Shown one piece after another: positions 39,516 to 62,779 of a DNA stretch of 64,000 bases. Below the pieces are notes generated by a model. That model searched no databases and had not been told where the DNA came from. It was given only the letters and a program-made list of their open reading frames with translations. The stretch is from an uncultured Candidatus Saccharibacteria bacterium (lineage in GTDB: Bacteria; Patescibacteriota; Minisyncoccia; Ryanbacterales; HO2-45-13). The stretch lies in the NCBI GenBank assembly GCA_964354975.1, contig CAYHBS010000001.1, forward strand, positions 56,282 to 120,281. The letters run 5' to 3'. The first letter of the stretch is position 1, and each line of letters begins with the position of its first letter. Made by a program: the position numbers and the translations under genes.

Positions 39516-40403
39516 TTACTGGTGTTCACTGGTAATTTTCCCCTGTAACGTTCGTAGTTTGTGTAAAAATATTTTCTCTTGATCCTTTTTTGCAATTGGC
39601 GCGTCCGGCCCCTTCCCGGGGGGCACTCCATGCCACCGGTAATCAAATTCAATTTCTGGAATTCCTTTTCCTGGAATGGTGTGCGCAATAATCATTGTTG
39701 GTTTTTCATATATTGCCGCTGCTTCATCAAATGCATTCGCAATACTTTCAATATTGTGTCCGTCCACTTCAATGACGTGCCAATTGAACGCTTCATATTT
39801 TGCGCGCATTGGTTCGAGCGGCATAATATCTTCTGTCATACCATCAATCTGAATATTATTACGGTCAATAATTGCCGTAATATTTGAAAGTCGGTATTTC
39901 CCCGTAAACATCATCGCTTCCCATACTTGTCCAGCATTTTGTTCGCCGTCTCCCATGAGACAGTAAAAACGCTCCTTTCCTCCGTCCATGCGCGCTCCAT
40001 ACGCCATCCCTGCGGTTTGTGAGAGTCCTGATCCAAGAGGGCCCGATGAGGTTTCAATACCTGGAAGCCTTTCACGATGTGGATGCCCTTGGAGACGTGT
40101 ACCAAATTTGCGTAGTGTGAGCAACTCTGCTACAGGAAAGTATCCCGCATGAGCCATTGTGGCATATTGCACAGGGCAAATATGGCCGTTTGAGAGAATA
40201 ACGCGATCGCGACCTTCCATCTCGGGATGTTGAGGATCGTGACGTAATGTATGAAAATAGAGCACCGTAAAAATATCGGTCATACCAAGGGGACCTGCGG
40301 TGTGTCCTGACCCCGCCGCGACCAACATTTCAACAATAGACTGACGGATTTTCCCGGCAGTTTCTTCTAGTTGTTTGATGTTGTCATCGTGGATGTGTCC
40401 CAT
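39516..40403 (-). CDS. Transketolase, N-terminal (TPP-binding) subunit
   Basis: 295 aa; GSGHTAGPLGMTDI, GDGEQNAGQVWEA motifs. Confidence 0.88.
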   Translation of the reverse strand: MGHIHDDNIKQLEETAGKIRQSIVEMLVAAGSGHTAGPLGMTDIFTVLYFHTLRHDPQHPEMEGRDRVILSNGHICPVQYATMAHAGYFPVAELLTLRKFGTRLQGHPHRERLPGIETSSGPLGSGLSQTAGMAYGARMDGGKERFYCLMGDGEQNAGQVWEAMMFTGKYRLSNITAIIDRNNIQIDGMTEDIMPLEPMRAKYEAFNWHVIEVDGHNIESIANAFDEAAAIYEKPTMIIAHTIPGKGIPEIEFDYRWHGVPPGKGPDAPIAKKDQEKIFLHKLRTLQGKITSEHQ

Positions 40404-41485
40404 GTAGGAAGTGGTTGAAAATATGCATTAAAATTAAGTTCGTTGATGGTGTACGCCTTGATCTGCCTGTCAATAATAGTAAGTTCGAGCAGTAATCCTT
40501 TTGATGTATCCTCGGAAAATCGTTGATCGAACACAAAGTTTCCAAGACTGTATGCAATAAGAGCTCCACGATATTCCTCTACTTCTTGTCCGACATGAGG
40601 ATGGTGCCCGATAACTGCGTCAGCTCCTGCGTCAACCGCAACATACGCAAGCGCGCGCTGACGCGCATTTGCGGTTGTCTGATATTCCTCACCAAAGTGG
40701 AAGGATACGAGTAGTATATCAACTTGTGCGCTTGCCTGCCGGACGATCCTGTCGATATCCTCTTCGCTCGCAATATTGATCCCAGGGCGCTCGCTCGTTG
40801 CCTTGAGCCAGTTCGGCCCAACATCGGAAAATCCAATAAAGCCTATCCGTGTTCCTCCAATGTCCCGTACCACAGGACGCTCCGCCGCGTCCGCGGTCAT
40901 TCCTGCGCCCGTAAGCCCCACGCGCGATCCAGTAAAACGGCGTAGCGTATCGGTAAACGCATCGATATTCCAATCTCCCACGTGGTTGTTTGCAAATGAG
41001 AAAACATCAAACCCCACATCTTCGAGTACGCGTACATTTTCAATTGGCATGCGAAAGGAATAGATGCTCCCAACATTATTACCCATATCAGATACCGGCC
41101 CTTCAAGATTACCAAACGCAATGTCCGCAGGCGAGATAATGTTACGTATGTGTGCAAATGGGAAATAAGGATCTCCGTCGCCCGCTTTCCCCACAATAAA
41201 CTTTACACCGCGATCAAGCATAATGTCCCCCACCGCAATAACACGGATGGAATCATTTTGTGTACGCGCCGCGTCACTTCCCGTCGACGCAACTGCGGCC
41301 ACAAATGGCCGCAATGCTTCCCTACGCTCGCTTCCTTGATAAGAAACCACATCGGCAAACGAGGGTATATATGACACATCGCTGACAAAAAAAGCGAGCG
41401 CATACCCGATTCCTACTATGAACAATGCCCCAATAAATGTGCGGGGTGAATTACGAGCGTGCGAATGACGCGATAAGCGAGTCAT
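40367..41485 (-). CDS. CapA/PGA_cap-family metallophosphatase-like protein (poly-gamma-glutamate capsule synthesis-like)
   Basis: ORF 40367..41578; AVGDIMLDRG, HHPHVGQEVE, LGNFVFDQ motifs; start uncertain (trimmed to Met at 41485; still overlaps rpe by 35 nt). Confidence 0.7.
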   Translation of the reverse strand: MTRLSRHSHARNSPRTFIGALFIVGIGYALAFFVSDVSYIPSFADVVSYQGSERREALRPFVAAVASTGSDAARTQNDSIRVIAVGDIMLDRGVKFIVGKAGDGDPYFPFAHIRNIISPADIAFGNLEGPVSDMGNNVGSIYSFRMPIENVRVLEDVGFDVFSFANNHVGDWNIDAFTDTLRRFTGSRVGLTGAGMTADAAERPVVRDIGGTRIGFIGFSDVGPNWLKATSERPGINIASEEDIDRIVRQASAQVDILLVSFHFGEEYQTTANARQRALAYVAVDAGADAVIGHHPHVGQEVEEYRGALIAYSLGNFVFDQRFSEDTSKGLLLELTIIDRQIKAYTINELNFNAYFQPLPTWDTSTMTTSNN

Positions 41486-42119
41486 ATTGTGTACGAATAG
41501 ATGATCCAGAGAGTAAGTACGATGCGGAGACGAATCGAGACGCTCCATGTGATGCGCAGGCATGTATAGTGTCCGCATTCACGCCACCGTCAATAGCAAT
41601 GGGAAGCGTGGGATAGAGACGCAGAGACTGTGTGATTTTTTTAGTGGTTCCGTTGTCCATCTGCTGTCCGGATGAACCCGGGGACACCGCGAGGAGCTGC
41701 ATCACATCGAGGAGCCTTGCATCGTCCCCCAGCACCTCAAGGCGAGTGCTCGGAGCGAGACTGAATCCAAACTCCTTCCCGATGCGCTTTGCGGACGCAG
41801 CAATGCTTCGTGATTTCTCGCACCCCTCAAATTGCACAATATATCTCCCGACGTGCGGTCGCAACCAATACGAAAATCGTGTGTCTATGTTGTCCAACAT
41901 TAAATGTAGTTCAATCTGAAATACAGACGTAAGATTGTCGAGATCTTTTGGATCGTGCCAAAGCACATTTGGCGTCAGCGTTCCATCTGCAACATCGATA
42001 TGCACGTGCGTGGGTGCGTGCGGATGATCTTTCAGCTCTCGCTCTACGCGGCGCACTACGTTCAGCACTTCACTAAATGTGCTCGCGTTAACGGCGGGGA
42101 TAATTTGTACCGATTTCAT
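41451..42119 (-). CDS. rpe: Ribulose-phosphate 3-epimerase
   Basis: 222 aa; HIDVADGTLTPNV and AIDGGVN motifs. Confidence 0.85.
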   Translation of the reverse strand: MKSVQIIPAVNASTFSEVLNVVRRVERELKDHPHAPTHVHIDVADGTLTPNVLWHDPKDLDNLTSVFQIELHLMLDNIDTRFSYWLRPHVGRYIVQFEGCEKSRSIAASAKRIGKEFGFSLAPSTRLEVLGDDARLLDVMQLLAVSPGSSGQQMDNGTTKKITQSLRLYPTLPIAIDGGVNADTIHACASHGASRFVSASYLLSGSSIRTQYDSLIASFARS

Positions 42120-42709: not shown

Positions 42710-45700
42710 TTACTGCGCGAGTATTAACTGTAACTGACGCTGGAGTTCGAGTAACCGTTCACGAAGCGACTCAATCTGTGTGGGAGTAGAGGAGCTCGTA
42801 AGTCCGGGAGGTGGAGCACCGGAGCCTGCACATTGACCAACGGTGGCGCCACTTGCAAGTGCGGCTCTCGTACGCGGTCCCACTCCCCCATGTCCGGTGG
42901 TGGTGGGGTCTCCGCTACATACGCCAAGGCGTTCACATTGGTACCGTTTGAGTGCACGCTCGGTGAGTGCGCCAAAGTAGTCAGATTCCTCGCCGGGTGC
43001 TCCGGGACCGGAGGAAGCGACGGTATGTCCAATCTTGTTCAGGTACTGTTGGAGCGAGTGTACATCAGCCCCAAATTCGCCAAAGACGAGCCAGCGCGTG
43101 ATTGTGATACCGGGTGTGGTGACACTGCAGACTCCGGGATACGCAGATCCCGGTCCTTCAGTAATAATTTCTGATCCATCACTGTTGTAGTTTGCAGAAG
43201 GGCGCGTTGCGACTGTGGGGAGAGAAACATTTCCATGCACATCAAGCGCAAAGATGGCGTAAAAGGTATTGGGCACTGTAACTGCTCCGTCCACAATGGC
43301 TGTCATGGGACCTTCATATATAATCGCGGATCCATCAGCCCCGGAGGCACTCGTCGGGGCGTTTCCTGCTTTCCGCAAAATCCGCACACGCGAGAAATCA
43401 GAATCAGAAGGATTTACCCAGTGGAGTGTCGCAGTGCCATCGCCGTTCTGAACCGCGCTAAATGCAGTCGGTGAGAGTGGAGCGATATAGTCGGAGGTTC
43501 CTCCTCCACTCCCAACACTTCCTCCTCCGACAGTACCTGTGATGGTGCCGGGAAGAATGCGATATGAGATGAATTCTGGGTCAGAAAAAGTTCCTTCATC
43601 ATCGTATGTGAATACCGTGTAGTAGTACGCCGTGCCCACAACTGCAGAGGTGTCCGTATAGGTGGTTCCGGTGATGTCTGCGAGCGCAGTAGCGCGCGAT
43701 GGAGTGAGGATGAAATCGGTGTCGCTTCGCATCACAATGGTTCCTGCATAAAATTCATACTCCGTTGGATTATTCCAGCGTAGAATAATGGAACCACTTG
43801 AAGCGGTGAGCTCCGTGACCTTCGGGGATTTCGGGAGACGTGCAACCGTGTACGTACCTATAATGCTGGAGGTGCGCGTATTTCCAGCGGCATCTCTCGA
43901 TGATACTTGGACGTAATAGATGGTCTTGCGGTCGAGGTTATGAATGGTAACGGTGTGGGACGTCACATACCTCGGATCTTCTTCAGTGAGCTCCCCGAGA
44001 TCTCCGCTGGTACCATATGCCACTCGAGAGGTTGCGGGTTCATTCGTCGTCCATGTGACCACTAGCTGGTCGCCGCGCGAGGAGTCTGCCAAGAGATTCG
44101 AAATGGTAGGCGCGGTGGTATCAGTGATGACGGGGTCTGCTTCACTGTCGTCCGTGGCACTCGTGCATCCGGGGTCGTTGGAGGTAGCAGTGCCGTAGTC
44201 AATCTTGCCGTCTCCGTCATTGTCGATGCCATCCGCACACGCCACCGGGATCACGATATTCACAACAACACTGTCCGTGGACGCGACTGCGCCGGCTTGA
44301 TAGCACGTAAGAGCGTAGGTGGTAGCTTGGATGAGCGTAGGAGTGGTTTGCGTACCAGCAGTCCCCGTCCATGCAGTTCCGGAGGGGTTTGACACCACGG
44401 TGCAAGAACCTGCGTTTGTAGACGACCACTGAATAGCGGCCGTGGTACCGGTGTTGAGTGAAATAGAACCTCCGGTGTATGTGCCGCTGTTTGAGGGACG
44501 CGCCTTGATATCAGCAGTGCTCACGGGATTGATCTCACTGGTGTCGGTGGCACTTGTGCATCCAAAGTCTGCCGGATAGTCGATCTTGCCGTCACTGTCA
44601 TTGTCGAGACCGTCTGCGCAGACTGCGAGCGGCGCGTTGTATTCGTCGTTGTCGGTGCTCGAGGAGCATCCGAGATCAGCGAGATCAATCTTCCCGTCTC
44701 CGTCATTGTCGAGACCGTCGGAGCAGGTATATACAGGAGGTGGTGCGTTGTATTCATCGGTGTCGGTGAGACTCGTGCATCCGGGGTCGTTGTTTGTTCC
44801 GGTGCCAAAGTCAATCTTGGTGTCTCCGTCATTGTCGAGGCCGTCGGAGCAGGCGGGAGGTGGTGCGGTGACAATGGTGAGGCCATCTTGTATGGACCAA
44901 CCGTCAGCGCCAGATGCAAAATCAATATTCCACCACCAAAATGGAGTCCCACTGAAGACGGCGTACTTGGGTCCTGCAATTACCGTTCCATTTTGATTGT
45001 CGAGTTGATCCCCGATATCCGTACCCCCGGGGATGTCGCGCACGTTCAGGAATGTTGTTGTCGTGACTTTCACGGCGTTCCCAATCGCAAACTTCGTACT
45101 CACGGGGGTGGGATTGGATTCATCGTTGTCGGTTGCGAGCACACATCCATAGTCCGCCATGTCTACTTTTCCATCGCCGTCATCATCGATGCTGTTGGCG
45201 CAGAGTGCCGCTACAGGAGGAGGCGTCGTCACACTTACATTACAGCTCGCGCTCGTACTGTTTGACGTGACCGAAACACTCTTAGTGCCGGTGGTGCTGT
45301 AGGTAGTCGAGAATGTTGCTCCCGTGCCTGTGGAAGGAGTGCCTCCGGTCGCAGTCCAGGAGTAGGTGCCGTTTCCATTTGCGGCGGTAAATGAGGCGGA
45401 GGCGCTGGTGTATACCGACTGGGTTGTGGGACTGCAGGTCACTGGGGATATAGGAGATGGTGCGTTGTATTCATCATTGTCGGTGAGACTCGTGCATCCC
45501 GGGTCATTGCTCGCCCCTGTACCGTAGTCGATCTTGGTGTCTCCGTCATTGTCGAGGCCGTCGGAGCAGGCGGCTATGGGTGCGTTGTATTCATCCGTAT
45601 CAGTTGAAGATGAGCAACCAGGATCTGTCGGATAGTCTGTTTTCCCGTCGCCGTCATTGTCGATGCCGTCTGCGCAGACGGCAGGGGGAGGAGGAGTGGT

Positions 45701-48700
45701 GCCCTCGCTCATCGTCACTGTTTTGGTGGACATGTCGTAGGTGACGGTGCGACCATCTACCACAATGCGCAGAACGTTTCCGGAGACAATAGGACTTCCC
45801 ACGACAGGGGCAACTCCGGTTGCGGAGGGATAGAGGAGGGTGACCTGGACAAATCGATTTGACTCGGCATTTGTGGAGAGTTCCACATAGCGGTCAAGCA
45901 CTGCTTCTTCACTTCCGGCTGCAGCGTTCAGTGTTGTTGGACCGCGCAACGTCATCGCTTGATTCGAGTAGACGGTGTTGATGAAGACTTTATTGGTAGT
46001 TCCTGGTTTCGTGAGCGTGAGATTGTTGCCTCCGGGAAGTGAGGGGGTCACGTCTGCGGAATAGTGGTGGCGCTGCTGCCAACGTCGAGCCACGGAACTC
46101 GCGAGATCGTCAATGATCACATAAAATCCATCACTGTTACTCTTGCGCGCAAAGACAAAGTGGCGATCAGCATCAGTGATGGTATCAGGATCAATGGAAC
46201 CATCCGCAAATTCGCCGTGTCGTCGATATGCTTCCCCCAGATCTCCTGCAACGTGGTACATATTCCCCACTCGTTCGTTTTGCGTAATGGAAGCGACTTG
46301 TGGAGAATAACCTTGTAATGTTGGGTTGGAATTATGCTGATACCCCGTTGAATGACATGCGGAAAGTGTGCTATTACACGCCATCACTGGGTTGTGCGCT
46401 CGGCTGGACTGCAAATAAGCATACCCACTACTGTCATATCCTCCGGTGTTGAAGAAGGTGTCCGTAAGAAAGCGTACGCCAAAGGCGTTCAGGATATATC
46501 CTCCCTCATCAGAGTGGCCATGGAATCCACCATGGTTGCCTACCTTTGAAACTAATTGAATATCATTCGTCTGTTCAAATCCGGTGCGCATAAATATTTG
46601 TCCAGATCCTCGTGTTCCAGGATCCACTCCTGGGGCATTGTGTACGCGCACAAAGTCGAGCTCTCCTGCGGGCGCGTTCGATGGCCTCACTTCGGGAATC
46701 GATTTCCCCCACAGCATGATGGTGAGTAGGTCGTCAGTTTCGTAGTCCGCGCGAATATTTGTGGTGGTCATGGCGCCAATTCTTCTCCGATCCATTTCAT
46801 TCCAGTACCACATTGCAGCGCCATCGTTGTAGTACGCGGCGTTCATCGCGTAGGAGGCACGCTTTGAGAGTCCATCGCGACCGTCACCAAACCCAGCTGC
46901 ATTATTAAGATTTGGTGCGGTAATGTGCATGGTATATTCACCAAAACGTTGCAAGATCGGCTTTCCATTAATAATTCGGTATCGGAACAAATCTACACCA
47001 GCATAGTTATTAAGTATGTGGTGCCAGAGATACATATTACTTGTAACTACCGACTGGGTGTAATTGTACGGTTCATACTCGGACCCGGTTGGATCAATAT
47101 TATAGTTCAAGAAATATTTCATCATCGCTTCCCCCTTTGTGATGAGTGATGCGGGCGTGGGACCAGATCCATATCGTGTATAGTTTTTGAGCAGAGTCCC
47201 TGCGCCGTACACCGAACCTACCGCGTGGTACCATTTATTCCCCTTTCCTCTGGGCTGCGAGAGATCTCCCCAGAAATAATCTGTGGACACACTCACCGCT
47301 TCCGCATAAAACAAATCTTCGAGCCGATTACGAATAGAGAGCTCTGATGATGTGGTAAACGAATCGTATGCAATATCCATTGCAACAACCATAGGACTAA
47401 ACACCCCGAGTTCGTGGAGATCAATCAAATTTGGATCCGATGCAGTCGGTTGATTAGGAAACGCGCTGTAGTTGGAGAATCGCGTGAGGGCCGCTTTCAC
47501 CGCAGACATCATTGACGCATCATTTGCAATCGTTGCGCAGATTGCGACGTCACGTACTTTCGGAGCATCATAGAATCCATCGCGTACTGAATATCCAGAG
47601 CCAAATCCACTTGCCGGAAACACTGAATTTTGTACTGCAGATTTCTGACTATCGCAGTCAGCCTTAAACGCAAGCCAATATTTGTTGTTGACTAATGCGC
47701 TGTTGTTGACTTTTGCACGGATATCTACGAGATCTTGATCAGTAAATAACAAATACGGATGGTTTCCGCCATTTCCATTATTCCCTCCTCCCGTCACGGG
47801 TGGTGTAGACACACTCACACTGCAACTTGCGGTCGTGCTGTTTGAAGTCACGGAAACACTCTTGGTACCCGTCGTACTATATGTAGTTGAGAAAGAAGCG
47901 CCAGATCCCGTGGAAGGAGTACCTCCGGTGGCGGTCCAGGTGTAGGTGCCGTTGCCGTTTGCGGCCGTAAACGTAGCAGAAGCACTGGTGTATACCGACT
48001 GTGTTGCGGGACTGCAGGTCACTGGGGATGCGGGAGGAGGAGGATTGTATTCATCAGTATCGGTGAGACTCGTGCATCCGGGGTCGTTGTTTGTTCCGGT
48101 GCCGTAGTCAATCTTGGTGTCCGCGTCATTGTCGAGACCGTCAGCGCAGGCAGTAGGGGGAGGAGGCGCGGTGACTACGGTGAGTCCGTCCTGTATAGAC
48201 CATCCATCTGGAGCATTCGTGTAGTCAATATTCCACCACCAATAGTTCACGCCGCTATAGACGGCAAATTTAGGACCTTCCACTACGGTACCTGTAGCAC
48301 CAGATGGTTGTCCGGTGCCATCACCGACACTCGCTCCTCCTGCGGGCATGCGCACATTCACACCAGCGGTGTTGCTCACGCGAACGGTATTCCCCACCGA
48401 AAATTTCGTGCTCACGGGAGTCGGATTCGATTCACTCGTATCTGCGGGACTTGCACATCCCGGGTCTGCCATATCGATGAGGGTGTCTTCTCCGTCTGTT
48501 CCGTCCACTCCATCGGAGCAATTTGTGGTGGTCACTGGAGGCGTACTCACACTCACACTGCAACTTGCGGTCGTGCTGTTTGAAGTCACGGAAACACTTT
48601 TGGTACCGGTACTCGTATATGTAGTCGAGAAAGAAGCACCTGATCCGGTTGATGGAGTTCCACCGGTAGCAGTCCAGGCGTAGGTACCATTCCCATTTGA

Positions 48701-51244
48701 TGCGGTGAACGATGCAGACTGTCCGGTAATGACTGATTGTGACGTGGGACTACATGCGACGGGAGACGCGGGAGGTGGTGCGTTGTATTCATCATTGTCG
48801 GTGAGACTCGTGCATCCGGGATCGTTTGAGGTTGCTGTACCAAAGTCAATCTTGGTGTCTCCGTCATTGTCGAGGCCGTCAGAACAGGCGGCGGGGGGTG
48901 TTGTTCCTCCACCACTCATCGTTATCGTTTTTGTGGATTGGTTATAGGTAACGGTTCGTCCCTCAACGGTGAGACTGATGGAGCTCCCTGAAATAACAGG
49001 TTCAGGAACGGTTGGTGCAACACCAGTCGCCGATGGGTAGAGTAGTGTCATTTGGACAAAACGACCGGAAGAATTATTGGTGGTGAGTTCTACGTAGCGG
49101 TCAAGCACCGATTTTTCACATCCACCTCCGGAACAATTCAACGTCGTCGGCCCCCTCATGGTCATTGATTGATTTGCATAGATGGCGTCAATAAACACTT
49201 TGTTCGACGTGCCATTTTTGGTGAGCGTAAGTTTATTTCCTCCCGGAAGTGTGGGGGTGACGTCTTCTGAATAATGCTGTCGCTGTTGCCAACGACGCGC
49301 CACGGAACTTGTGAGGTCATCGATAATTACATAAAATCCATCGCTACTACTTTTGCGAACAAAGACGAAGTGGCGATCTGCGTCGGTAATGGTGTCGGGG
49401 TCAATAGTGGTGAGCCCATCTTCACCGTGACGCCGGTATGCCGCCCCAAGATCTGCCGCAACATGATACATATTTCCCGAGCGTTCATTGAGCGTGATGA
49501 CCGCGTCGGGTGCAGAATACCCTTGAATTTGCGGATTAGAATTGAGTCTATATCCGCTCGCATGGCATTCGGTGAGGTCACTACTGCATGCCATCACGCC
49601 GTTATGCGCTTTACTGCTCTGCAGATAGTAGTATCCACTACTATCATACCCGCCGGTATTGAAGAAGGTGTCGGTGAGAAATCGTGCCCCAAATGCGTTC
49701 AGAATATATGCGCCTTCGTCGGAGTGTCCGTGAAAGCCATTATAATCTCCCGCTTGTGAGGCAAGTTTAATATCATTTATACCTTCAAATCCGGTGCGCA
49801 TAAAAATATGCCCAGAACCCCATTGTCCTTGCGCAGAGCCCGCTGAATCATACGCTTTTACCAGGTCAATCTCGCCTGCCGGCGCACTACTTGGTCGTAC
49901 TTCAGAAATTTCTTTCCCCCAGAGCGCAATAGGGAGGATGTCGGTGGTTTCATATTCTCGAAGAATATTTGTGGTCGTGAGGGCTCCGACCGTTCGGCGA
50001 TCCATTTCTTTCCAGAACCACATCGCCACGCCGTCGTTATATTCAACCGCATTCATTGCATATGGTAGGCGACTCAACAAGACGTCGCGTCCATCTCCAA
50101 ATCCTATGGCGTGCTCCAAATCGGGAGCGGTCACATGCATCGCATACTCGCCGAATCTCTGAAGAATTGGCTTTCCATCGACGACGCGGTAACGCGCGAG
50201 GTCCGTTCCGGAATAGTTTTTGAGGATACGCTGCCAAAGATAGAGGTTACTAATGACCACGGATTGTGTATAGTTGTATGGTTCATATTCCGATCCATCA
50301 GGATCGAAGTCCTTGTCGAAGAAATATTTCATCATCGCCTCCCCCTTGGCAGTCAACTGTGCGGGAGTCAGCCCCGATCCATATCGTGTATACCCTTTGA
50401 GCAAGGTACCGGTGCCGTACACGATGCTCATGTATCCCATCCAGTGATTCCCCTTCGATCTTCCAAGAGACATGTCTGCGTAGGTTGTGTTGAGCACATT
50501 TATTGTCTGCGCGTACAACAAATCTTCGAGTTTATTCCGCGTGGTGAGATCGGTCGCAAGTGAATCATATGCAATATCCATCGGGATGATCATCTGACTG
50601 AACGCTCCAACATCGTAGAGTTCTATCTGTCCGTCCGTATCCACAATGGGGCGATAATTGGAAAACCGAGTGAGCGCGGCTTTTACGGCCGACATCATGG
50701 ACGCATCATTTGCAATCGCGGCACATACCGCAACATCAGTCACCTTGAGTGAGTCTTGATACCCACGAGACGTTGAATACCCCGATCCAAACCCACCCGT
50801 TGGAAACACCGAATTTTGCACTTCGGATTTTAGTCCGTCGCAACGAGATTTGAATGCGAGCCAAAATTTGTTGTTGATTGTTGAGGTGTCATTTACTTTA
50901 GCTCGAATACCTACGAGCTCTGCATCCGTGAACAAGAGATATGGATGATTCCCACCGTTCCCTTGATTTCCACCAGAGGTAGTTTGCGCCACCGCACCAC
51001 CTGCAAAGAAACCCTGAATAGCACCGAGCACTCGTTCAAGAATAGAGACGGTTGAGGCGATCATGTCGATCGTTGCTACGTCCGTGATTGCCGCGCGTGC
51101 GACGTTGGGAGGTACGGTGATCGAAATAATCGAGAGAACGAGTAAAAAAGAAAACAGCGCACGCGAGATGTGCCCGTGAGATGTGCTATTCATAAAAAAC
51201 AGTGAGTAATGTGGCGCTAATAATGTATATATTGTAGCAAGCAA
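42710..51244 (-). CDS. Giant secreted multidomain protein (2844 aa): two heparinase II/III-like polysaccharide-lyase modules, Cys-bracketed Asp-rich Ca-binding-type repeats, three Thr/Ser-rich Ig-like repeats, FN3-like domain, C-terminal peptidoglycan-binding domain
   Basis: Signal peptide. Each lyase module shows NHPYLLFTD...FHGHSDEG.YILNAFG..FLTDTFF.TGGYDSSGY.YLQSS.AHN.VMAC (Hepar_II_III-like). CxDGxDNDxDxKIDxxxxxxxDPGCTSxTDxDEYN repeats occur at least 9 times. C-terminal ALTERALKRYQCERLGV is PG_binding_1-like. Confidence 0.85.
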   Translation of the reverse strand: MLATIYTLLAPHYSLFFMNSTSHGHISRALFSFLLVLSIISITVPPNVARAAITDVATIDMIASTVSILERVLGAIQGFFAGGAVAQTTSGGNQGNGGNHPYLLFTDAELVGIRAKVNDTSTINNKFWLAFKSRCDGLKSEVQNSVFPTGGFGSGYSTSRGYQDSLKVTDVAVCAAIANDASMMSAVKAALTRFSNYRPIVDTDGQIELYDVGAFSQMIIPMDIAYDSLATDLTTRNKLEDLLYAQTINVLNTTYADMSLGRSKGNHWMGYMSIVYGTGTLLKGYTRYGSGLTPAQLTAKGEAMMKYFFDKDFDPDGSEYEPYNYTQSVVISNLYLWQRILKNYSGTDLARYRVVDGKPILQRFGEYAMHVTAPDLEHAIGFGDGRDVLLSRLPYAMNAVEYNDGVAMWFWKEMDRRTVGALTTTNILREYETTDILPIALWGKEISEVRPSSAPAGEIDLVKAYDSAGSAQGQWGSGHIFMRTGFEGINDIKLASQAGDYNGFHGHSDEGAYILNAFGARFLTDTFFNTGGYDSSGYYYLQSSKAHNGVMACSSDLTECHASGYRLNSNPQIQGYSAPDAVITLNERSGNMYHVAADLGAAYRRHGEDGLTTIDPDTITDADRHFVFVRKSSSDGFYVIIDDLTSSVARRWQQRQHYSEDVTPTLPGGNKLTLTKNGTSNKVFIDAIYANQSMTMRGPTTLNCSGGGCEKSVLDRYVELTTNNSSGRFVQMTLLYPSATGVAPTVPEPVISGSSISLTVEGRTVTYNQSTKTITMSGGGTTPPAACSDGLDNDGDTKIDFGTATSNDPGCTSLTDNDEYNAPPPASPVACSPTSQSVITGQSASFTASNGNGTYAWTATGGTPSTGSGASFSTTYTSTGTKSVSVTSNSTTASCSVSVSTPPVTTTNCSDGVDGTDGEDTLIDMADPGCASPADTSESNPTPVSTKFSVGNTVRVSNTAGVNVRMPAGGASVGDGTGQPSGATGTVVEGPKFAVYSGVNYWWWNIDYTNAPDGWSIQDGLTVVTAPPPPTACADGLDNDADTKIDYGTGTNNDPGCTSLTDTDEYNPPPPASPVTCSPATQSVYTSASATFTAANGNGTYTWTATGGTPSTGSGASFSTTYSTTGTKSVSVTSNSTTASCSVSVSTPPVTGGGNNGNGGNHPYLLFTDQDLVDIRAKVNNSALVNNKYWLAFKADCDSQKSAVQNSVFPASGFGSGYSVRDGFYDAPKVRDVAICATIANDASMMSAVKAALTRFSNYSAFPNQPTASDPNLIDLHELGVFSPMVVAMDIAYDSFTTSSELSIRNRLEDLFYAEAVSVSTDYFWGDLSQPRGKGNKWYHAVGSVYGAGTLLKNYTRYGSGPTPASLITKGEAMMKYFLNYNIDPTGSEYEPYNYTQSVVTSNMYLWHHILNNYAGVDLFRYRIINGKPILQRFGEYTMHITAPNLNNAAGFGDGRDGLSKRASYAMNAAYYNDGAAMWYWNEMDRRRIGAMTTTNIRADYETDDLLTIMLWGKSIPEVRPSNAPAGELDFVRVHNAPGVDPGTRGSGQIFMRTGFEQTNDIQLVSKVGNHGGFHGHSDEGGYILNAFGVRFLTDTFFNTGGYDSSGYAYLQSSRAHNPVMACNSTLSACHSTGYQHNSNPTLQGYSPQVASITQNERVGNMYHVAGDLGEAYRRHGEFADGSIDPDTITDADRHFVFARKSNSDGFYVIIDDLASSVARRWQQRHHYSADVTPSLPGGNNLTLTKPGTTNKVFINTVYSNQAMTLRGPTTLNAAAGSEEAVLDRYVELSTNAESNRFVQVTLLYPSATGVAPVVGSPIVSGNVLRIVVDGRTVTYDMSTKTVTMSEGTTPPPPAVCADGIDNDGDGKTDYPTDPGCSSSTDTDEYNAPIAACSDGLDNDGDTKIDYGTGASNDPGCTSLTDNDEYNAPSPISPVTCSPTTQSVYTSASASFTAANGNGTYSWTATGGTPSTGTGATFSTTYSTTGTKSVSVTSNSTSASCNVSVTTPPPVAALCANSIDDDGDGKVDMADYGCVLATDNDESNPTPVSTKFAIGNAVKVTTTTFLNVRDIPGGTDIGDQLDNQNGTVIAGPKYAVFSGTPFWWWNIDFASGADGWSIQDGLTIVTAPPPACSDGLDNDGDTKIDFGTGTNNDPGCTSLTDTDEYNAPPPVYTCSDGLDNDGDGKIDLADLGCSSSTDNDEYNAPLAVCADGLDNDSDGKIDYPADFGCTSATDTSEINPVSTADIKARPSNSGTYTGGSISLNTGTTAAIQWSSTNAGSCTVVSNPSGTAWTGTAGTQTTPTLIQATTYALTCYQAGAVASTDSVVVNIVIPVACADGIDNDGDGKIDYGTATSNDPGCTSATDDSEADPVITDTTAPTISNLLADSSRGDQLVVTWTTNEPATSRVAYGTSGDLGELTEEDPRYVTSHTVTIHNLDRKTIYYVQVSSRDAAGNTRTSSIIGTYTVARLPKSPKVTELTASSGSIILRWNNPTEYEFYAGTIVMRSDTDFILTPSRATALADITGTTYTDTSAVVGTAYYYTVFTYDDEGTFSDPEFISYRILPGTITGTVGGGSVGSGGGTSDYIAPLSPTAFSAVQNGDGTATLHWVNPSDSDFSRVRILRKAGNAPTSASGADGSAIIYEGPMTAIVDGAVTVPNTFYAIFALDVHGNVSLPTVATRPSANYNSDGSEIITEGPGSAYPGVCSVTTPGITITRWLVFGEFGADVHSLQQYLNKIGHTVASSGPGAPGEESDYFGALTERALKRYQCERLGVCSGDPTTTGHGGVGPRTRAALASGATVGQCAGSGAPPPGLTSSSTPTQIESLRERLLELQRQLQLILAQ

Positions 51245-51432: not shown

Positions 51433-51570
51433 ATATTTGTAATTATTCACAGGTTTCTTCCACATCACTTTCTTCTATGAGAAAGTGATGTGGAATTTAT
51501 CCTTCAATTTGCATTATATACAGAAACTTTTCATGAATATTTTATCAGGAAACCTAAAATTGGTGCGAGA

Positions 51571-53580: not shown

Positions 53581-56500
53581 TCACCGAGGTGTATATAATT
53601 TATCGGGTCGGATCGCAAATTCGATATCAATGGTATTTTGTTTGCTACAACCCACATAATCGGCACCGCACGCTCCGTCCCATCCGACGAGCTTGACACC
53701 GTAGCGACCGGGAAGTACCGAAGCGTCCAAAATAGTAATCGTCACGGTATCATTTAAATCAGTATCGAAAATTAGACCTTCGGTGGATCCGCTTGAGAAC
53801 CGTGCTTCATATTCGGAAGATTGCAACGTTGAAAATTCAGCGTCCGAGCACGTCACTTCATCATCAACGCACTTCACGTACACGCTATCTACCTTTAGCT
53901 TGATGTCCCCCGTAAACCCTCCGAGACGAGTCGCGGTTACTTCAATCGTATTTGTTTTCCAGTTACCAGTACCCGACTCATCCACCGGCTTTACTACCGC
54001 AAATGTAGTTTCGTTTGATGTGACTTCAAGCTCGAACGCGGGACCAACTTTGCGAAGTAGCACACACATTCCCCAGAAGGTATTTTCAAATGCGTTATAT
54101 TCATTGTTGTCAGTGACGGATGAGCATCCTGGATCATTACTACTTCCTTCTCCATAGTCTTTATAGGTGTCCACGTCATTGTCGACGCCGTCGTTGCAGG
54201 CATAAGCCGCTGGTGGTGCTCCTGGCTTATTGCCTGGATCTGTACCGTCAGTAGGAAATACATCTCCACTTTGGTCGAGTTCCGAAAATAATTTATGTGA
54301 AAACCTCGCGCTCACCGCATCTACCGGCAAGAAGAAGTTCGTGTTGACGCGATCGGTGGTAATAATATTATTTGGCACGTAGTCCGGAATATCAGTGGTA
54401 GGAGACGAGCCTCCGATGCGATTCCCCTGTGGAGTCGCTTCAAATGAAAACCCGGGTGTGGTGGATGCGGCGTTATACAGCTCGATATACGCCGATTCAT
54501 CTTTCTGGTACCACCCCTCGCCGCTACCACCATGGGCGTCATATATTTGCAGCCAGATGTCGTAATATCCGGAAGGAACGGGTGTGGGAAATGTGGCGGC
54601 GGTTGTTGTCGCCTCAAGAATTATTGCCCCACCATGCCGCGAGTTTAGACGCCGATCGGAATCCGCTTTCCTAACCCCATTTGTACTACTATCGGTCTCA
54701 CCTGTTGCGAGGAGAAAATCAAGTACGTACTCTCCATTCTCGGGATCGTCTTTCCAGTCACACGCTATTTCAAATGTGACGAGGGATGCACATCCGTCTT
54801 CTGCCCCAGTCACTTGATACTGGAGCGTACTATACGTCGCGCCTGAAAAACTAATCCATCCGAGAATGTCGCCTCCCCATGCCCAGCCACTGTAATTACA
54901 ATCGCTAATCGTGACGCCGTACTGAATAGACTCATTTGCCTGCTTGCTCAAACTAATCCAGCCGTCCCATCCTCCCGGATGATCTGCAGCAGTTGCGCAC
55001 GTACCGGGAATTTCGTTTGAAGCGGTCGCGGTACCAAGACATGCACGCGCCCAGCCCGTCACCTTCCCTGTTGAGGTTGCGACCCTTGCCTCACACAGTC
55101 CCGCCGGACATTGCCCGAGTTGACTCTTATTAAACGAGATCCAGCCAATGTTTTCATTCCATGCATATCCCGAAATGAGCCCCGTGGGATCTACATTGAG
55201 TCCATAATCATTTGAGGGATTCGGGTCTGCAAAACTAATCCACCCCACCGTTTCGCTCCATGCCCATCCCGTAATTTCACGCAGCGCACTATCCTCACTG
55301 CGATCGGAAAGTGATACACATCCTGTGTCCGATCCAAAATCAGTTTGCCCGTCTCCATCATTGTCTATTTTATCCTCGCACTGTACGGCCACACGTGAGC
55401 ATGTTTCGCAGGTATACCCGTCAGTTCCGCGATAAGAAATACCGGGATATTCTGCAGGAGGTGATCCGGGAGCCGGGTCCCAATCCACTTCCCAGAACCA
55501 CGCACCTTTCCCGTACTGTCCCGTATTGCTGTTGTCGGCGTATATAGGATCACTATTTAGCGCGGTACCAATGACATTCTTGGGTACACCAAGAAAGTGC
55601 TCATGGTTATCTCCTGGTCCCGTGCATCCCATATCTGCAGAATAATCAATGATGCCATCACCATCATTATCAATATTGTCTTCACATGCGTCGAGCCCTG
55701 CTACTGTGTTCACCTCCGTTGTATCCGCGGCAGAACTACATCCCGTGTCGGAAGAAAAATCAATCGCGCTGTCCCCATCATTATCTATGCCATCATTGCA
55801 ACCATTTGGCACACTTCCATTGTGATAACACACTCCTTTTCCTGTGCCGGGATGAATAAAGCATCCTCTCTTATACACCGTAGTACTGTTTGAGATAGGA
55901 TCATCAGGATCGGACATAATTCTACTCCCCGCCGTGTGCGTGGTGGAAACACGGTTGAGTTCGCTATCATCATCTGCATACGCGCATCCCGGATCATATC
56001 TGTCTTTATATCCGTCCCCATCATTGTCCACCGTATCGTTACACGCGGCAGAAGCGTCTGGATTACTTTCCACGTCACTTTCATCGTTGTCGCTCGTTGA
56101 ACTACATCCAACGTCATTGAGGTCAATATAAGTGTCTGTATCATTATCTTGCCCGTCATTGCACTGCGCAGGAAGAATGAGATTTCCGTCCGCTGCCCAT
56201 CCATCGGTGCCAGAATCAAAATTTACTCTCCAGTACCACGCACCTCCTTCGTAGCTTGGCGCACCTATAAATCCATAAGTTGGTGTGGACAGGGTAACCG
56301 CTCCCCCCGCATTTAGCACTTGAGACCCGCTCGGCGTCATACCACTCGTGGGTGAAAGCGCCCCTGCCGAAATAGGGTACACACTTGCGCTCGCCACGCC
56401 CACGACTATTCGCTGCCCATTTGAAAATGTAGTTGGCGGTATCTCATCCGACTCGTTATTGTCGGATGATCCTCCACACCCCGGATCTGCAGCGTCTATG

Positions 56501-58551
56501 TAACCATCAGTGTCGTCGTCCCCGCTATTTGCACATTGCGCTGGAGCCGCTCCTGATGGCGGCACTGCAACTGCAATATGTACGGTACGATTATACGTTC
56601 CGAGGTGGTTCCAGTGCATGCTGGTATTCCCGATGCTGCCTGCTGCTTTAGTGCTCACACCAAATTGTAAATAGTATGTTCCACCGTTTGTTGTTCGATG
56701 TATTTCAGTTTGCGAGGGATCTGCGGTCGCTACATTGGTAATTTGCCCCGTCATAAACGCATCAACGACTAAACTGTTTGCAGTACTCACACTCACGGTC
56801 ACATCTTTGATTTCACAGGCAGTCGGCCAACAGGGTGTGCCTTCATCTGACGCACTTGGAGCATCGGCTGCTCCCGAAAGTAACACCGCAGAAGCCGACT
56901 TTCCAGGCACTGACCCATTCCAAGTAATCACCACATTGCTGGTTCCCGCGGGTGGATCAGTCACATACCACGTGGACACACAACTATTCCAGCCGGATTG
57001 TTTTGTTGTTGTGGCAACCGCCCGTTGTGGAGTGCTTGCCCCATATGTCACTGAATTGACCGCACACCCCACTGCGTTATTTCTTTCGGCATACGTAGAA
57101 ATAATAAGCAGTTGATCGACGGAAGCACTCGGTACGGTGAATGGGAACGTGGCGGAGCTTGAAGTAGTAGCGGTAAATGTATTTGCCGTACCATACGGAT
57201 TGTCGTAGCGGTAATCGGAGGAGACAACGGAGGGGGGAGATGAGGGTGGCGCATTATATTCATCAGTGTCGGTGGAAGAAGTACAGCCCGGGTCACCTCC
57301 AGAAAAATCAATGAAACCATCGGCTGGGCTATCGTCCTCTTGTCCGTTGTTACATTCGACGGCAGCCGATAGGTTCGCCGCATTCACCCATCCATCAGTG
57401 CCTGCATCAAAATTCACTCTCCAATACCATACTCCTCCGCCATAACTTGGGGCACCGGTAAATCCATACGTTGGTGTAGCAACATTGATTACTCCTTTTG
57501 CATCTTGGGACTGCGTGCCACTCGATGTCATATTGCTTGTCGGAGCAAGTGCCCCCGCAGCAATTGGGTAGAGATTCGTGCTAGCCACTCCCACAACTAT
57601 GCGCTGTCCATTTGTAAACGTTGTGGGTGGTGTATGTGATTCGTCGTTGTCGGATGACGCTCCGCACCCCGGATCTGCGGCATCAATAAGAGAGTCTCCA
57701 TCATCATCTCCGCCATTTTCACACGCAAATGCCGGAGGCACCACAACTGCAACGTGCGCGGTACGGTTGTAGGTATAATTCAGCGGATCATCACTCCAAC
57801 TCATGGTGATGTTCCCGGGAATAGTGCTGACTTCCGTGCTCACGCCAAACCGCAATGTACTATTGGTACCAAGATTTGTTTGATTATGAATTGGGGTCTG
57901 ATTCGCCCCCACCTCGGGTGTGGTATTGAGTATTCCTGTCACAAATGAACCGAGCACTAAACTGTTTGCCGTACTCACGCTCACGGTCACGTCCTTGATT
58001 TCACAGCCGCTCGGCCAACAGGGGGTGCCCTCATCTGACGCACTTGGAGCATCGGCTGCCCCAGAGAGAAGCACTGCGGATGCCGCACTTCCCAATATTC
58101 CGCTCGTCGTCCATGTAATAACCACATCATATGTTCCTGCGGCAGGAAAAGAGGCGCCGTCGAGATACCGTGTATCAACACACGTATTTAATGATGATGT
58201 GTTTTTCGTTGTCGTCGCGACGGCTGCGAATAGTGGCGTGCCGTTATATGTAATGCTCTGCACGGTACACCCCTCAACATTAATGCGCCTACCATATGCA
58301 GAGACAAGGAGGAGTTGGTCTGCAACTGGGCCTGTGACTGTGACTGGGAATGTTGCTGATGTAGTCGTTGTTGCACTAAACGTATTTGCCGTACCGTAGG
58401 GATTGTCGTAACGGTAGTCGGAGGAGACAACGGAGGGGGGAGGGACGGCTTGCGCAGATGTCGATGGACTGTCGAATATCAATACTGCTCCTGCGATGAG
58501 CATGAGCAGTATGAGCGAAGCGGCGTAGTGATGCTTCTGAATTTTTGGCAT
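53581..58551 (-). CDS. Giant secreted surface protein (1656 aa): two tandem ~430-aa N-terminal modules, multiple Cys-bracketed Asp-rich repeats, and a four-unit GWISF repeat domain shared with 59459-62779
   Basis: Signal peptide. Duplicated VPPPSVVSSDYRYDNPYGTANTF...CENGGDDDGDSLIDAADPGCG modules. CNDGxDNDxD repeats. ITGWAWSETVGWISF / ISGYAWNENIGWISF / GGWDGWISL / YSGWAWGGDILGWISF repeats. Confidence 0.8.
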   Translation of the reverse strand: MPKIQKHHYAASLILLMLIAGAVLIFDSPSTSAQAVPPPSVVSSDYRYDNPYGTANTFSATTTTSATFPVTVTGPVADQLLLVSAYGRRINVEGCTVQSITYNGTPLFAAVATTTKNTSSLNTCVDTRYLDGASFPAAGTYDVVITWTTSGILGSAASAVLLSGAADAPSASDEGTPCWPSGCEIKDVTVSVSTANSLVLGSFVTGILNTTPEVGANQTPIHNQTNLGTNSTLRFGVSTEVSTIPGNITMSWSDDPLNYTYNRTAHVAVVVPPAFACENGGDDDGDSLIDAADPGCGASSDNDESHTPPTTFTNGQRIVVGVASTNLYPIAAGALAPTSNMTSSGTQSQDAKGVINVATPTYGFTGAPSYGGGVWYWRVNFDAGTDGWVNAANLSAAVECNNGQEDDSPADGFIDFSGGDPGCTSSTDTDEYNAPPSSPPSVVSSDYRYDNPYGTANTFTATTSSSATFPFTVPSASVDQLLIISTYAERNNAVGCAVNSVTYGASTPQRAVATTTKQSGWNSCVSTWYVTDPPAGTSNVVITWNGSVPGKSASAVLLSGAADAPSASDEGTPCWPTACEIKDVTVSVSTANSLVVDAFMTGQITNVATADPSQTEIHRTTNGGTYYLQFGVSTKAAGSIGNTSMHWNHLGTYNRTVHIAVAVPPSGAAPAQCANSGDDDTDGYIDAADPGCGGSSDNNESDEIPPTTFSNGQRIVVGVASASVYPISAGALSPTSGMTPSGSQVLNAGGAVTLSTPTYGFIGAPSYEGGAWYWRVNFDSGTDGWAADGNLILPAQCNDGQDNDTDTYIDLNDVGCSSTSDNDESDVESNPDASAACNDTVDNDGDGYKDRYDPGCAYADDDSELNRVSTTHTAGSRIMSDPDDPISNSTTVYKRGCFIHPGTGKGVCYHNGSVPNGCNDGIDNDGDSAIDFSSDTGCSSAADTTEVNTVAGLDACEDNIDNDGDGIIDYSADMGCTGPGDNHEHFLGVPKNVIGTALNSDPIYADNSNTGQYGKGAWFWEVDWDPAPGSPPAEYPGISYRGTDGYTCETCSRVAVQCEDKIDNDGDGQTDFGSDTGCVSLSDRSEDSALREITGWAWSETVGWISFADPNPSNDYGLNVDPTGLISGYAWNENIGWISFNKSQLGQCPAGLCEARVATSTGKVTGWARACLGTATASNEIPGTCATAADHPGGWDGWISLSKQANESIQYGVTISDCNYSGWAWGGDILGWISFSGATYSTLQYQVTGAEDGCASLVTFEIACDWKDDPENGEYVLDFLLATGETDSSTNGVRKADSDRRLNSRHGGAIILEATTTAATFPTPVPSGYYDIWLQIYDAHGGSGEGWYQKDESAYIELYNAASTTPGFSFEATPQGNRIGGSSPTTDIPDYVPNNIITTDRVNTNFFLPVDAVSARFSHKLFSELDQSGDVFPTDGTDPGNKPGAPPAAYACNDGVDNDVDTYKDYGEGSSNDPGCSSVTDNNEYNAFENTFWGMCVLLRKVGPAFELEVTSNETTFAVVKPVDESGTGNWKTNTIEVTATRLGGFTGDIKLKVDSVYVKCVDDEVTCSDAEFSTLQSSEYEARFSSGSTEGLIFDTDLNDTVTITILDASVLPGRYGVKLVGWDGACGADYVGCSKQNTIDIEFAIRPDKLYTPR

Positions 58552-62400: not shown

Positions 62401-62779
62401 CTGCCTGACAATTTGGTGCCGTCGGGCAAGTCGATGTATCAATAGAATTAAACGAAAGCCAGCCAATATTGTCCGTTTTTGTTATTGAATTTGTGGCCAT
62501 CCATGGAGATAACATCGCTCCTGCATTCGTATCTTCCGGGTTTGCCCATGCATACCCACTGATAACTCCCGTAGACGATACTTTCACTCCATAACCAGCG
62601 CCGCCCGTTGGTGGATCGGTATCATTAAAACTGATCCATCCGATAGTCTCTGACCAGGCAAAACCGGACAGATTATCAGTGGTTGCTGCAGAAGCCGGCT
62701 GAAACGCAAACATCGCAAGCGCAGCGAGCGCAAGCGTCCCGATGAAGAACCATTTATACTGTTTAACGGCAAGTATCAC
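59459..62779 (-). CDS. Large secreted surface protein (1106 aa): N-terminal GWISF four-repeat domain followed by a long Thr/Ser-rich array of Ig-like domains
   Basis: Signal peptide. LSGFAWSETIGWISF, ISGYAWANPED...NIGWLSF, GWVRLRG, WSGYAWSDDFGWINF repeats match the domain in the 1656-aa protein. Confidence 0.8.
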   Translation of the reverse strand: MILAVKQYKWFFIGTLALAALAMFAFQPASAATTDNLSGFAWSETIGWISFNDTDPPTGGAGYGVKVSSTGVISGYAWANPEDTNAGAMLSPWMATNSITKTDNIGWLSFNSIDTSTCPTAPNCQAALNKSTGQVTGWARFILGSELPNGGWVRLRGTATTGAVYGVSVSACQWSGYAWSDDFGWINFMDSATNGSPYGIVGTGDACVAPYNYSIAAPTAITVVKAASGSITEPLPVTITKTSGSTNEVVTITSITVSPASSAINPSWAGASCTPISGTPCVTTGLIDIESGATAGTYTLTTNTRSATGILKSDTTTLTVQDAPTFDFSLSRNPISIPYTAPATKYSDITVTRTAGTAASVNLSATVTNSSGATVSTITTAFSPSTSCIPSTGSCVLRMNVTVPSGMPDGPYTVNVRGVNGSTIRNTTVQLCVNFCSTFNYTVDAPNAETTVTRPSSGSITQNIPILITRTAGTSEDVRITSVTFADNTSLPSSISASALIGQLCRPSPTCQIARVLTITSAAPVGTHTLRVNTQAAGGRTANDTFILTIDNPPAPGVNFTVVPSTPATVTSYGGTSVRSNVVITWLSPLSAVERVRMVSVTFPTSPIASAGINADYDSTVSCLPSGNPLRCTRPLDLTVGAIVPDGTYTGQVCVRSIGNSAAGIASTNTHKCGNFTITVDVNGPLAMLDGRKTPKPTDPPTAYNYVNGPITVPSGSTVDLTWGSVDAESCQLSSDGVDFGTPGNSGTYVTGALTTDTTFTLTCDNANTLISGNPAIDKFVVNISATPPDPISVSLQGRPRSSGIYTDGPVRIIVGTGADLRWTVRNVTTGTTDITATCVLDSSSGSTWSKNTVRTHSFSAITVDRTYTITCTSASGGASVSDTIDVDVYTDVDLDGPGSVDQGEDFDLDVNYDGPTTGASCTLTGGGVNQTFDPNVPGNDTIGVTAPSSGPSVTYTINCTAGSEETSDTHTLTLNTVQCFDNFNFVGGTTPTAAFILQDNNSQNTFSVDVVLSLNGFDPNNLNLSFDTDVIIGSDTAPMRIANQTTTPLGSGSFRITLTLDNSRTQPVGEFTMRLRAEDTVGSCADKILLIPAYLIDERESLGEQ

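Follow-up and report, generated by a model that had tools for sequence, protein, structure and literature searches.

A probable wall-tethered tandem polysaccharide lyase of the heparinase II/III-like type in groundwater Saccharibacteria

Introduction

Giant surface proteins are, to our knowledge, common in the genomes of CPR/Patescibacteria and have almost never been assigned biochemically. The hyaluronate lyases of Gram-positive cocci are wall-anchored enzymes. Four further solved systems are close to the protein described here. Atu3025 of Agrobacterium tumefaciens (PL15, 3A0O/3AFL) is an exotype oligoalginate lyase consisting of a single module and located in the cytoplasm. The glycosaminoglycan lyases of PL35 (GAGase II/VII, 8KHV/8KHW; chondroitinase, 9O3Q) are single-domain enzymes belonging to GAG utilisation of the Bacteroidota type. 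Dp0100 (PL39, 6JP4) is a multidomain secreted alginate lyase from a free-living thermophile, and dermatan-sulfate epimerase 1 (6HZN) is a eukaryotic Golgi enzyme.

Residue roles have been worked out for several of these families. In GAGase II, H403, D405, D421 and H457 form a Mn2+ site (PMC12088678). In related families a His following the catalytic Asn helps to abstract the proton or to neutralise when the substrate is a particular uronate epimer, as seen for alginate activity; lyases of PL35 and PL12 work in its absence and carry Trp or other residues in its place (PMC12088678).

Here, we analyze a gene in a 64-kb stretch of DNA (the window) whose product probably cuts acidic polysaccharides as a tethered enzyme, judging from domain and residue conservation. 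A giant protein would thus become assignable to a specific chemistry, the beta-elimination of uronate polymers, with concrete candidate residues.

Results and Discussion

The gene and its genomic surroundings

The gene lies in a single unbroken ORF on the minus strand (42710..51244, 2844 codons), the longest form of which starts at TTG. The ATG at 51193 is likely the start codon, yielding a product of 2827 aa; it was preferred over the TTG at 51244 because independent-contig gene calls and the orthologs begin at MNS... The gene calls on other contigs also give a length of 2827 aa, and the product read from the ATG begins with MNSTSHGH..., the orthologs with MNSK... Read by eye from the translation, a hydrophobic, signal-peptide-like segment ends at ARA/A. 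Neither an LPXTG motif nor a transmembrane segment is present in the 2827-aa protein.

42710..51193, minus strand: coding sequence from the probable ATG, 2827 aa plus stop; TTG of the longest ORF at 51244
51092..51193, minus strand: signal-peptide-like N-terminus (MNSTSHGHISRALFSFLLVLSIISITVPPNVARA, followed by A), read from the translation and kept in P0002 and L002
42621..42647, minus strand: intrinsic-terminator-like hairpin, 12-bp stem with 8 GC pairs and a T-run, 63 nt past the stop codon

The neighbours comprise gap, trxB, rpiB, rpe, a PGA_cap-family gene, a split transketolase, a PfkB-type kinase, an aldolase and similar genes. No genes for uronate uptake or catabolism were seen in the 64-kb window, just central-carbon genes and the unspecific PfkB-type kinase, and no genes for acidic-polymer synthesis were seen within it around the lyase gene. 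An upstream ORF of 1656 aa encodes eight acidic repeats of the NF033662 type together with the same type of ~85-aa beta-rich domain that is found in the lyase protein (see below), and linker repeats are shared between the lyase protein and the neighbouring giant ORFs.

The two lyase modules

The initial annotation had read the 2844-codon frame as a secreted multidomain protein of a putative episymbiont, with two ~700-aa heparinase II/III-like modules and a C-terminal peptidoglycan-binding domain. This core reading is borne out by the uninterrupted frame, by the domain matches, by an ortholog in a Saccharibacteria MAG and by the origin of matching contigs from the 0.1 um filter fraction. The modules themselves are 68% identical and map as follows.

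48890..50965, minus strand: lyase module 1, ORF residues 94-785, with an (alpha/alpha) toroid (~94-443) and an antiparallel beta-sandwich (~462-785)
45677..47779, minus strand: lyase module 2, ORF residues 1156-1856

Direct sequence evidence for lyase homology is weak and the transitive evidence strong. For Pfam Hepar_II_III_C (PF07940), whose gathering score is 24, the whole protein scores 24.3 bits and the separate modules fall short with 21.3 and 19.4; an ortholog with three modules reaches 42.7 bits. The N-terminal half of the modules has no Pfam match, and phmmer with module 1 as query against the PDB gave no match. A profile of close relatives by itself matched, in the PDB, the toroid part only of the PL35 chondroitinase 9o3q (1.2e-5) and, with an E-value of 0.1, PL35 8khv. 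Among 48 remote homologs, in turn, 39 carry Hepar_II_III_C and 21 carry DUF4962/DSE-like_N. A family profile of 26 sequences matched PDB entries of six PL families (PL15/39/35/17/21/12) with E-values from 5.9e-59 to 2.5e-9. The best matches were PL15 Atu3025 (5.9e-59), PL39 (1.2e-49) and PL35 (2.3e-48 and 2.1e-39), followed by dermatan-sulfate epimerase (1e-32), PL17 (1.9e-30), heparinase II (2.2e-25) and heparinase III (2.1e-16). The PL-family match expected in the initial annotation was therefore recovered clearly by the family profile, with the Pfam model at the borderline.

An AF2 model built on a 4-sequence alignment (pLDDT 38.8) was discarded, and the 26-sequence alignment was used instead. 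Both the two-domain fold of the heparinase II/III-like superfamily, an N-terminal (alpha/alpha) toroid followed by a C-terminal antiparallel beta-sandwich, and a significant profile relation to its characterised members were found, so that placement of the modules in this superfamily (the PL8/12/15/17/21/33/35/39/40 clan) has good structural support. Their identity to the nearest solved lyases is 14-16%, and the branch is about equidistant from PL12/15/17/21/35/39. Membership in two CAZy families was considered and rejected: in the case of PL15, neither clear sequence similarity nor the N-terminal beta-domain of that family was found; in the case of PL35, the match to 9o3q covers the toroid only, the modules have no DUF4962 match, and they read GNHW/GNKW instead of Asn-Asn-Trp.

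Putative active and metal sites were mapped with HMMER alignments and the residue roles given in PMC12088678, i.e., by sequence alignment only. In module 1, the putative catalytic residues are N266-H267, Y325 and H505, and the putative metal site consists of H507, D509, D525 and H547. The equivalents in module 2 are N1336-K1337 (Lys for His), Y1395 and H1575, with H1577, D1579, D1595 and H1617 at the metal site. The Asn column of the family aligns with N186 of PL39 and N336 of exoHep, the column after it with PL39 H187 and Atu3025 H311, the invariant Tyr with PL39 Y239 and Atu3025 Y365, and the first His of the HGH motif with PL39 H405 and Atu3025 H531. In the close-relative profile alignment, H-x-H-x-D...(16 residues)...D aligns with H403/D405/D421 of GAGase II, while the His of the AH[NS] motif was assigned to GAGase II H457 by motif spacing. 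The catalytic His and Tyr named in the initial annotation are hence present, along with Asn, in both modules.

The Asn/Tyr/His set and the metal ligands are kept in 7/7 modules of two genomes. The His after Asn occurs in the first module of both orthologs only, and every other module has Lys. Relative to the ortholog, dN/dS is 0.097 for module 1 and 0.105 for module 2; strong purifying selection acts on both, along the whole module rather than on one binding face. Conservation of the catalytic residues and the strong selection on both modules argue for two functional, sub-functionalised catalytic heads. As the role of the His in related families concerns particular uronate epimers, the contrast between His and Lys suggests that the heads may differ in substrate or epimer preference.

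Repeat architecture and accessory domains

The two modules are not isolated units, but part of a large, ancient super-repeat. Self-comparison aligns residues 89-1029 with residues 1151-2130 at 65% identity over 987 aa, giving a unit of ~1000 aa composed of a lyase-like module, an acidic repeat, a PKD domain, an acidic repeat, an ~85-aa beta-domain and an acidic repeat. The super-repeats are followed by further acidic repeats, an Ig-like segment, FN3 domains and PG_binding_1.

48785..48886, minus strand: acidic disulfide repeat 1 of 10, NF033662, CxDGxDNDxDxKxD...DPGCxSxxDxxE
about 48425-48520, minus strand: acidic repeat, ORF residue 909 onward, motif position
about 48047-48148, minus strand: acidic repeat, ORF residue 1033 onward, motif position
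about 45575-45676, minus strand: acidic repeat, ORF residue 1857 onward, motif position
about 45467-45568, minus strand: acidic repeat, ORF residue 1893 onward, motif position
about 45107-45202, minus strand: acidic repeat, ORF residue 2015 onward, motif position
about 44750-44851, minus strand: acidic repeat, ORF residue 2132 onward, motif position
about 44630-44725, minus strand: acidic repeat, ORF residue 2174 onward, motif position
about 44525-44620, minus strand: acidic repeat, ORF residue 2209 onward, motif position
about 44138-44239, minus strand: acidic repeat, ORF residue 2336 onward, motif position
48530..48763, minus strand: PKD copy 1, marginal (Pfam PKD 24.3 bits against a cutoff of 23.5 for the isolated copy)
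47792-48025, minus strand: PKD copy 2, by self-similarity to the other copies
45212-45445, minus strand: PKD copy 3, by self-similarity to the other copies
48161..48412, minus strand: ~85-aa beta-rich domain copy 1 ('...YWWWNIDY...DGWSIQDGL'), by self-similarity
44861-45097, minus strand: ~85-aa beta-rich domain copy 2, 59% aa identity with copy 1
44246..44512, minus strand: Ser/Thr-rich Ig-like segment, ORF residues 2245-2333, weakly self-similar to the PKD region
43175..44110, minus strand: FN3-type domains, ORF residues ~2379-2690, at least 2 stretches
42845..43087, minus strand: PG_binding_1 (PF01471), above the cutoff of 23 with 27-27.6 bits here and 30.5 in the ortholog
42713-42811, minus strand: conserved C-terminal helix after PG_binding_1

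Nine or more Cys-bracketed, Asp-rich repeats had been counted initially; there are ten, and they belong to the NCBIfam model NF033662, 'acidic double-disulfide repeat' (149.2 bits against a cutoff of 41, 10 stretches). The label thrombospondin-type-3/dockerin-like, given to them at first, had to be dropped: neither Pfam TSP_3 nor Dockerin_1 is listed at E<=1, and the resemblance is confined to the DxDxDG-type acidic loop. The protein also gives a weak match to EF-hand_7 (18.8 bits against 30). A literature search on the acidic double-disulfide repeat returned nothing relevant.

Three ~85-aa repeats had been described as near-identical at the DNA level. Three copies do exist and are of the PKD type; they share, however, 78-79% DNA and 80-86% protein identity (pS 0.56-0.70). 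The ~85-aa beta-rich domain, SH3-like by eye, has no sequence match in Pfam or the PDB, and the Ser/Thr-rich Ig-like segment matches no Pfam family. The FN3-like and PG_binding_1 domains of the initial annotation were both retrieved above threshold, fn3 with 34 bits against 25 in the C-terminal piece. Given its score above the Pfam gathering cutoff, the C-terminal PG_binding_1 domain is predicted to bind peptidoglycan.

Orthologs and rarity

A genome scan found the family in one species-representative genome only, the Candidatus Saccharibacteria MAG GCA_964360995.1. Its ortholog (L002, 5441..17314, 3957 aa) is syntenic, with the order trxB-gap-giant gene; identity amounts to 82% across residues 18-2009 and to 80% across the C-terminal 980 residues. 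A third module, at about 39% identity more divergent than the others, is present in it as well. With two modules here and three in the ortholog, module number shifts on an evolutionary time-scale. The same MAG contains a second, paralogous gene that adjoins rpiB-rpe and is split into three ORFs.

Beyond this species pair the family is sparse. Searched with a profile, 1.84 billion representative proteins yielded 52 matches at E<=1e-3, of which 12 had E<=1e-30; the ten top-scoring matches were checked, and all ten fell into singleton or two-member metagenomic clusters bearing no functional names. A word-indexed homolog search returned just 2 relatives, and a scan of JGI metagenomes gave none. 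The majority of the remote relatives carry an Asn-Trp motif like that of PL35. Dockerin and GH115_C domains accompany remote relatives in what are presumably free-living polysaccharide degraders. A literature search for polysaccharide lyases, heparinases or alginate lyases in Saccharibacteria/CPR retrieved nothing relevant. We conclude that groundwater Saccharibacteria encode a rare tandem protein of the heparinase/alginate-lyase type, strongly diverged and placed on a surface stalk, which may represent a new PL family. For carbohydrate enzymology it adds to the heparinase/alginate-lyase clan a very rare branch with a natural His-to-Lys contrast in tandem active sites.

Proposed mechanism and role

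With moderate confidence, we read the gene as encoding a Sec-exported, wall-tethered tandem polysaccharide lyase with two putative uronate-cleaving heads and a proposed role at the host interface. After Sec export and cleavage of the signal peptide, the protein would be retained by non-covalent binding of its C-terminal PG_binding_1 domain to peptidoglycan, which may be that of the cell itself, as the initial annotation proposed, or that of the host. The two catalytic modules of the heparinase II/III type lie distally, at the N-terminus, and would be pushed outward from the wall by a long stalk that combines FN3, Ig-like and PKD domains with the ten acidic, disulfide-bracketed DxDxDG-type repeats, presumably stiffened by Ca2+. 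For each module we propose beta-eliminative cleavage of a polysaccharide that contains uronic acid. Asn (N266 / N1336), with the neighbouring His267 or Lys1337, would neutralise the substrate's C6 carboxylate in subsite +1, the pair of Tyr (Y325 / Y1395) and His (H505 / H1575) would serve as Bronsted base and acid, and the His-Asp-Asp-His site (H507, D509, D525, H547 and equivalents) would bind a structural metal.

The role may be to open up or harvest an acidic polymer, belonging to the host envelope or to a biofilm, where episymbiont and host meet. As no uronate-catabolism genes adjoin the lyase gene, a nutritional role has no local support. A host-envelope-directed role is plausible, since host cell-wall glycans matter in Saccharibacteria attachment (PMC11623550); degradation of environmental EPS fits the data just as well. 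Should the substrate be a wall or capsule polymer of the host, the way in which ultra-small episymbionts gain access to their hosts or feed on them would have a molecular step that can be tested. A bolder version, which is conceivable though doubtful, holds that the PL family is new, its close form having been seen so far in just a few groundwater Saccharibacteria/Patescibacteria, and that the protein acts as a wall-tethered, two-headed 'glycan drill' whose Asn-His and Asn-Lys sites differ in the uronate epimers or linkages that they attack in an acidic polymer of the host envelope (e.g., the capsule or a teichuronic acid, the host being actinobacterial), thereby giving access to the host surface. 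Were this true, an enzymatic factor that breaches the host envelope would for the first time be assigned to a CPR bacterium.

Alternative explanations

That the duplicated architecture is an assembly artefact, or the gene a hyper-recombinogenic, phase-variable locus, as the initial annotation partly proposed, we regard as extremely improbable. Several short-read contigs from different samples do end within the gene (at residues 781, 979, 1836 and 2035), as expected for a repeat-rich gene, and module number differs between species (2 vs 3). Matching contigs, reached via the neighbouring gap gene in the 0.1 um filter fraction of Hainich groundwater, nevertheless include one from a different sample assembly (L007) with the complete 8484-nt gene between gap and rpiB, showing 4 mismatches and no indel. 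Three partial contigs (L009, L010, L011) are collinear with the window gene at 99.8-99.9% over 6105, 5508 and 2343 nt, respectively, and a further one (L008) represents a variant strain at 90.5%. The long identical DNA stretches reported at first were not recovered: direct DNA repeats in the gene are 72-85% identical, the longest exact one measures 51 nt, and pS is 0.56-0.70 between the PKD copies and 0.77 between the two modules, so that the repeats are old and diverged. The modules are saturated (pS 0.77), the duplication predates the species split, and four assemblies from different samples are collinear, which speaks against a contingency locus prone to recombination.

Regarding function, the modules might be uronosyl C5-epimerases or other non-lytic modifiers that remodel a polymer by the His/Tyr/His chemistry of dermatan-sulfate epimerase, whose shared fold and catalytic triad count against a firm lyase call. 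This is quite unlikely, given that the best matches are lyases, as is every other strong match (>35 chains, PL12/15/17/21/33/35/39/40) apart from the epimerase; we also know of no bacterial secreted epimerase of this fold. Somewhat less remote, though still unlikely, is a protein that serves chiefly as an adhesin for an acidic host-surface polysaccharide, with catalytically dead or slow glycan-binding heads. The long Ig/FN3/PKD stalk with Ca-type repeats resembles giant adhesins, nearby giant ORFs have linker repeats in common with it, host wall glycans take part in attachment (PMC11623550), and module 2 and relatives have Lys where PL15/PL39 have His. Yet Asn/Tyr/His and the metal ligands are complete in all seven modules, PL35/PL12 lyases dispense with that His (PMC12088678), and selection is strong over the entire module rather than over a binding surface. 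An active lyase that is not directed at a host, degrading free environmental or biofilm EPS (alginate- or glucuronan-like, in groundwater) or trimming its own exopolymer, would draw on the same molecular evidence as the wall-tethered lyase, and the remote relatives with dockerin and GH115_C in presumed free-living degraders fit it. The window, as distinct from the whole genome, reveals neither uronate uptake and catabolism nor acidic-polymer synthesis genes, which weighs lightly against it, and we consider it a minor possibility.

Comparison with known systems

Taking the wall-tethered tandem lyase as the preferred reading, the protein shares parts with each of the described systems. Atu3025 is 14-15% identical to the modules, but its N-terminal beta-domain (residues 1-115) has no counterpart here, the alignment beginning at residue 116; Arg314 is its neutraliser and Ser precedes its His, a place held by Asn in our modules, and its single cytoplasmic module stands against a tandem surface protein. 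PL35 is the sole solved family matched by the close-relative profile and has in common with the modules the Asn/Tyr/His triplet and the H-x-H-x-D...D...H metal (Mn2+) spacing. Identity is 16%, however, Asn-Trp replaces Asn-His/Asn-Lys, the Pfam model DUF4962/DSE-like_N misses the modules, and the single-domain architecture of PL35 is unlike the tandem protein. In Dp0100 the pattern N186, H187, Y239 and H405 is identical to Asn-His/Tyr/His of module 1, and this enzyme is a multidomain secreted protein as well; about 14% identity, one catalytic module, other accessory domains and the thermophilic source set it apart. Dermatan-sulfate epimerase 1 resembles the modules in fold and His/Tyr/His triad with high structural scores, but is 10-11% identical and has no lytic outcome. 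The NF033662 repeat proteins constitute a family defined by the repeat alone, represented here by ten repeats and 149 bits. In concept, the PL8 hyaluronate lyases of Gram-positive cocci (1LOH/1F1S) offer the same arrangement, a surface-retained lyase of toroid and beta-sandwich acting on an external acidic polysaccharide.

Relatives of the giant lyase gene

Relatives of the giant gene, which encodes two heparinase II/III-like lyase modules, map to the following loci outside the window:

L002 5441-17314: syntenic ortholog of 3957 aa with three lyase modules, in the Candidatus Saccharibacteria MAG GCA_964360995.1
L001 12-8070: paralogous gene in three overlapping ORFs (611, 1216 and 859 aa), in the same MAG as the ortholog
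L008 11380-14316: co-occurring strain variant, in a sample from another Hainich well

The additional lyase module of the L002 ortholog shares only about 39% identity with the other modules, and it gives the clearest Pfam Hepar_II_III_C match (42.7 bits). Along the first 2.9 kb, the L008 strain variant aligns to the giant gene at 90.5% DNA identity and with 25 gap openings, a sign that the first module is diverse at the population level.

The ORF breaks of the paralogous gene on L001 are located in the PKD and beta-domain repeats; therefore, either it is a pseudogene or assembly frameshifts are present. Its N-terminal 611 aa are unrelated, resemble beta-helix repeats by appearance and are without a Pfam match. 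The gene terminates in a lyase module, the PG-binding domain being absent, and it adjoins rpiB, rpe, the PGA_cap gene and tkt.

Genomic neighbourhood and the large-gene cluster

In the window, the giant gene is accompanied by the following genes and ORFs:

40367-41578 (-): PGA_cap (CapA-like) family gene
53581-58551 (-): second giant ORF, 1656 aa
58576-59088 (-): 170-aa ORF without family match
59459-62779 (-): 1106-aa ORF without family match

The PGA_cap gene lies among the pentose-phosphate genes downstream of the giant gene and overlaps its neighbouring ORFs; its synteny is kept in the related MAG. The giant gene is separated from gap by 377 nt, and this spacer contains a perfect 17-bp inverted repeat (hairpin, 51458-51495), which is likely to be either the terminator of gap or a regulatory element.

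The 1106-aa and 170-aa ORFs and the two giant genes jointly constitute a cluster of large putative surface-protein genes (42.7-62.8 kb), broken up only by trxB and gap. The counterpart of the 170-aa ORF on a matching contig, a precomputed 165-aa gene call, has a weak PTL_trimer match.

The 1656-aa ORF, which is without a Pfam match, has a signal-peptide-like N-terminus and an internal duplication of about 430 aa. It contains eight copies of the acidic double-disulfide repeat (107 bits to NF033662) and has the 'WYWRVNF...DGW' beta-domain type in common with the lyase protein. It looks like a further surface protein, built with the same linker kit as the lyase protein but with head domains that are without assignment.
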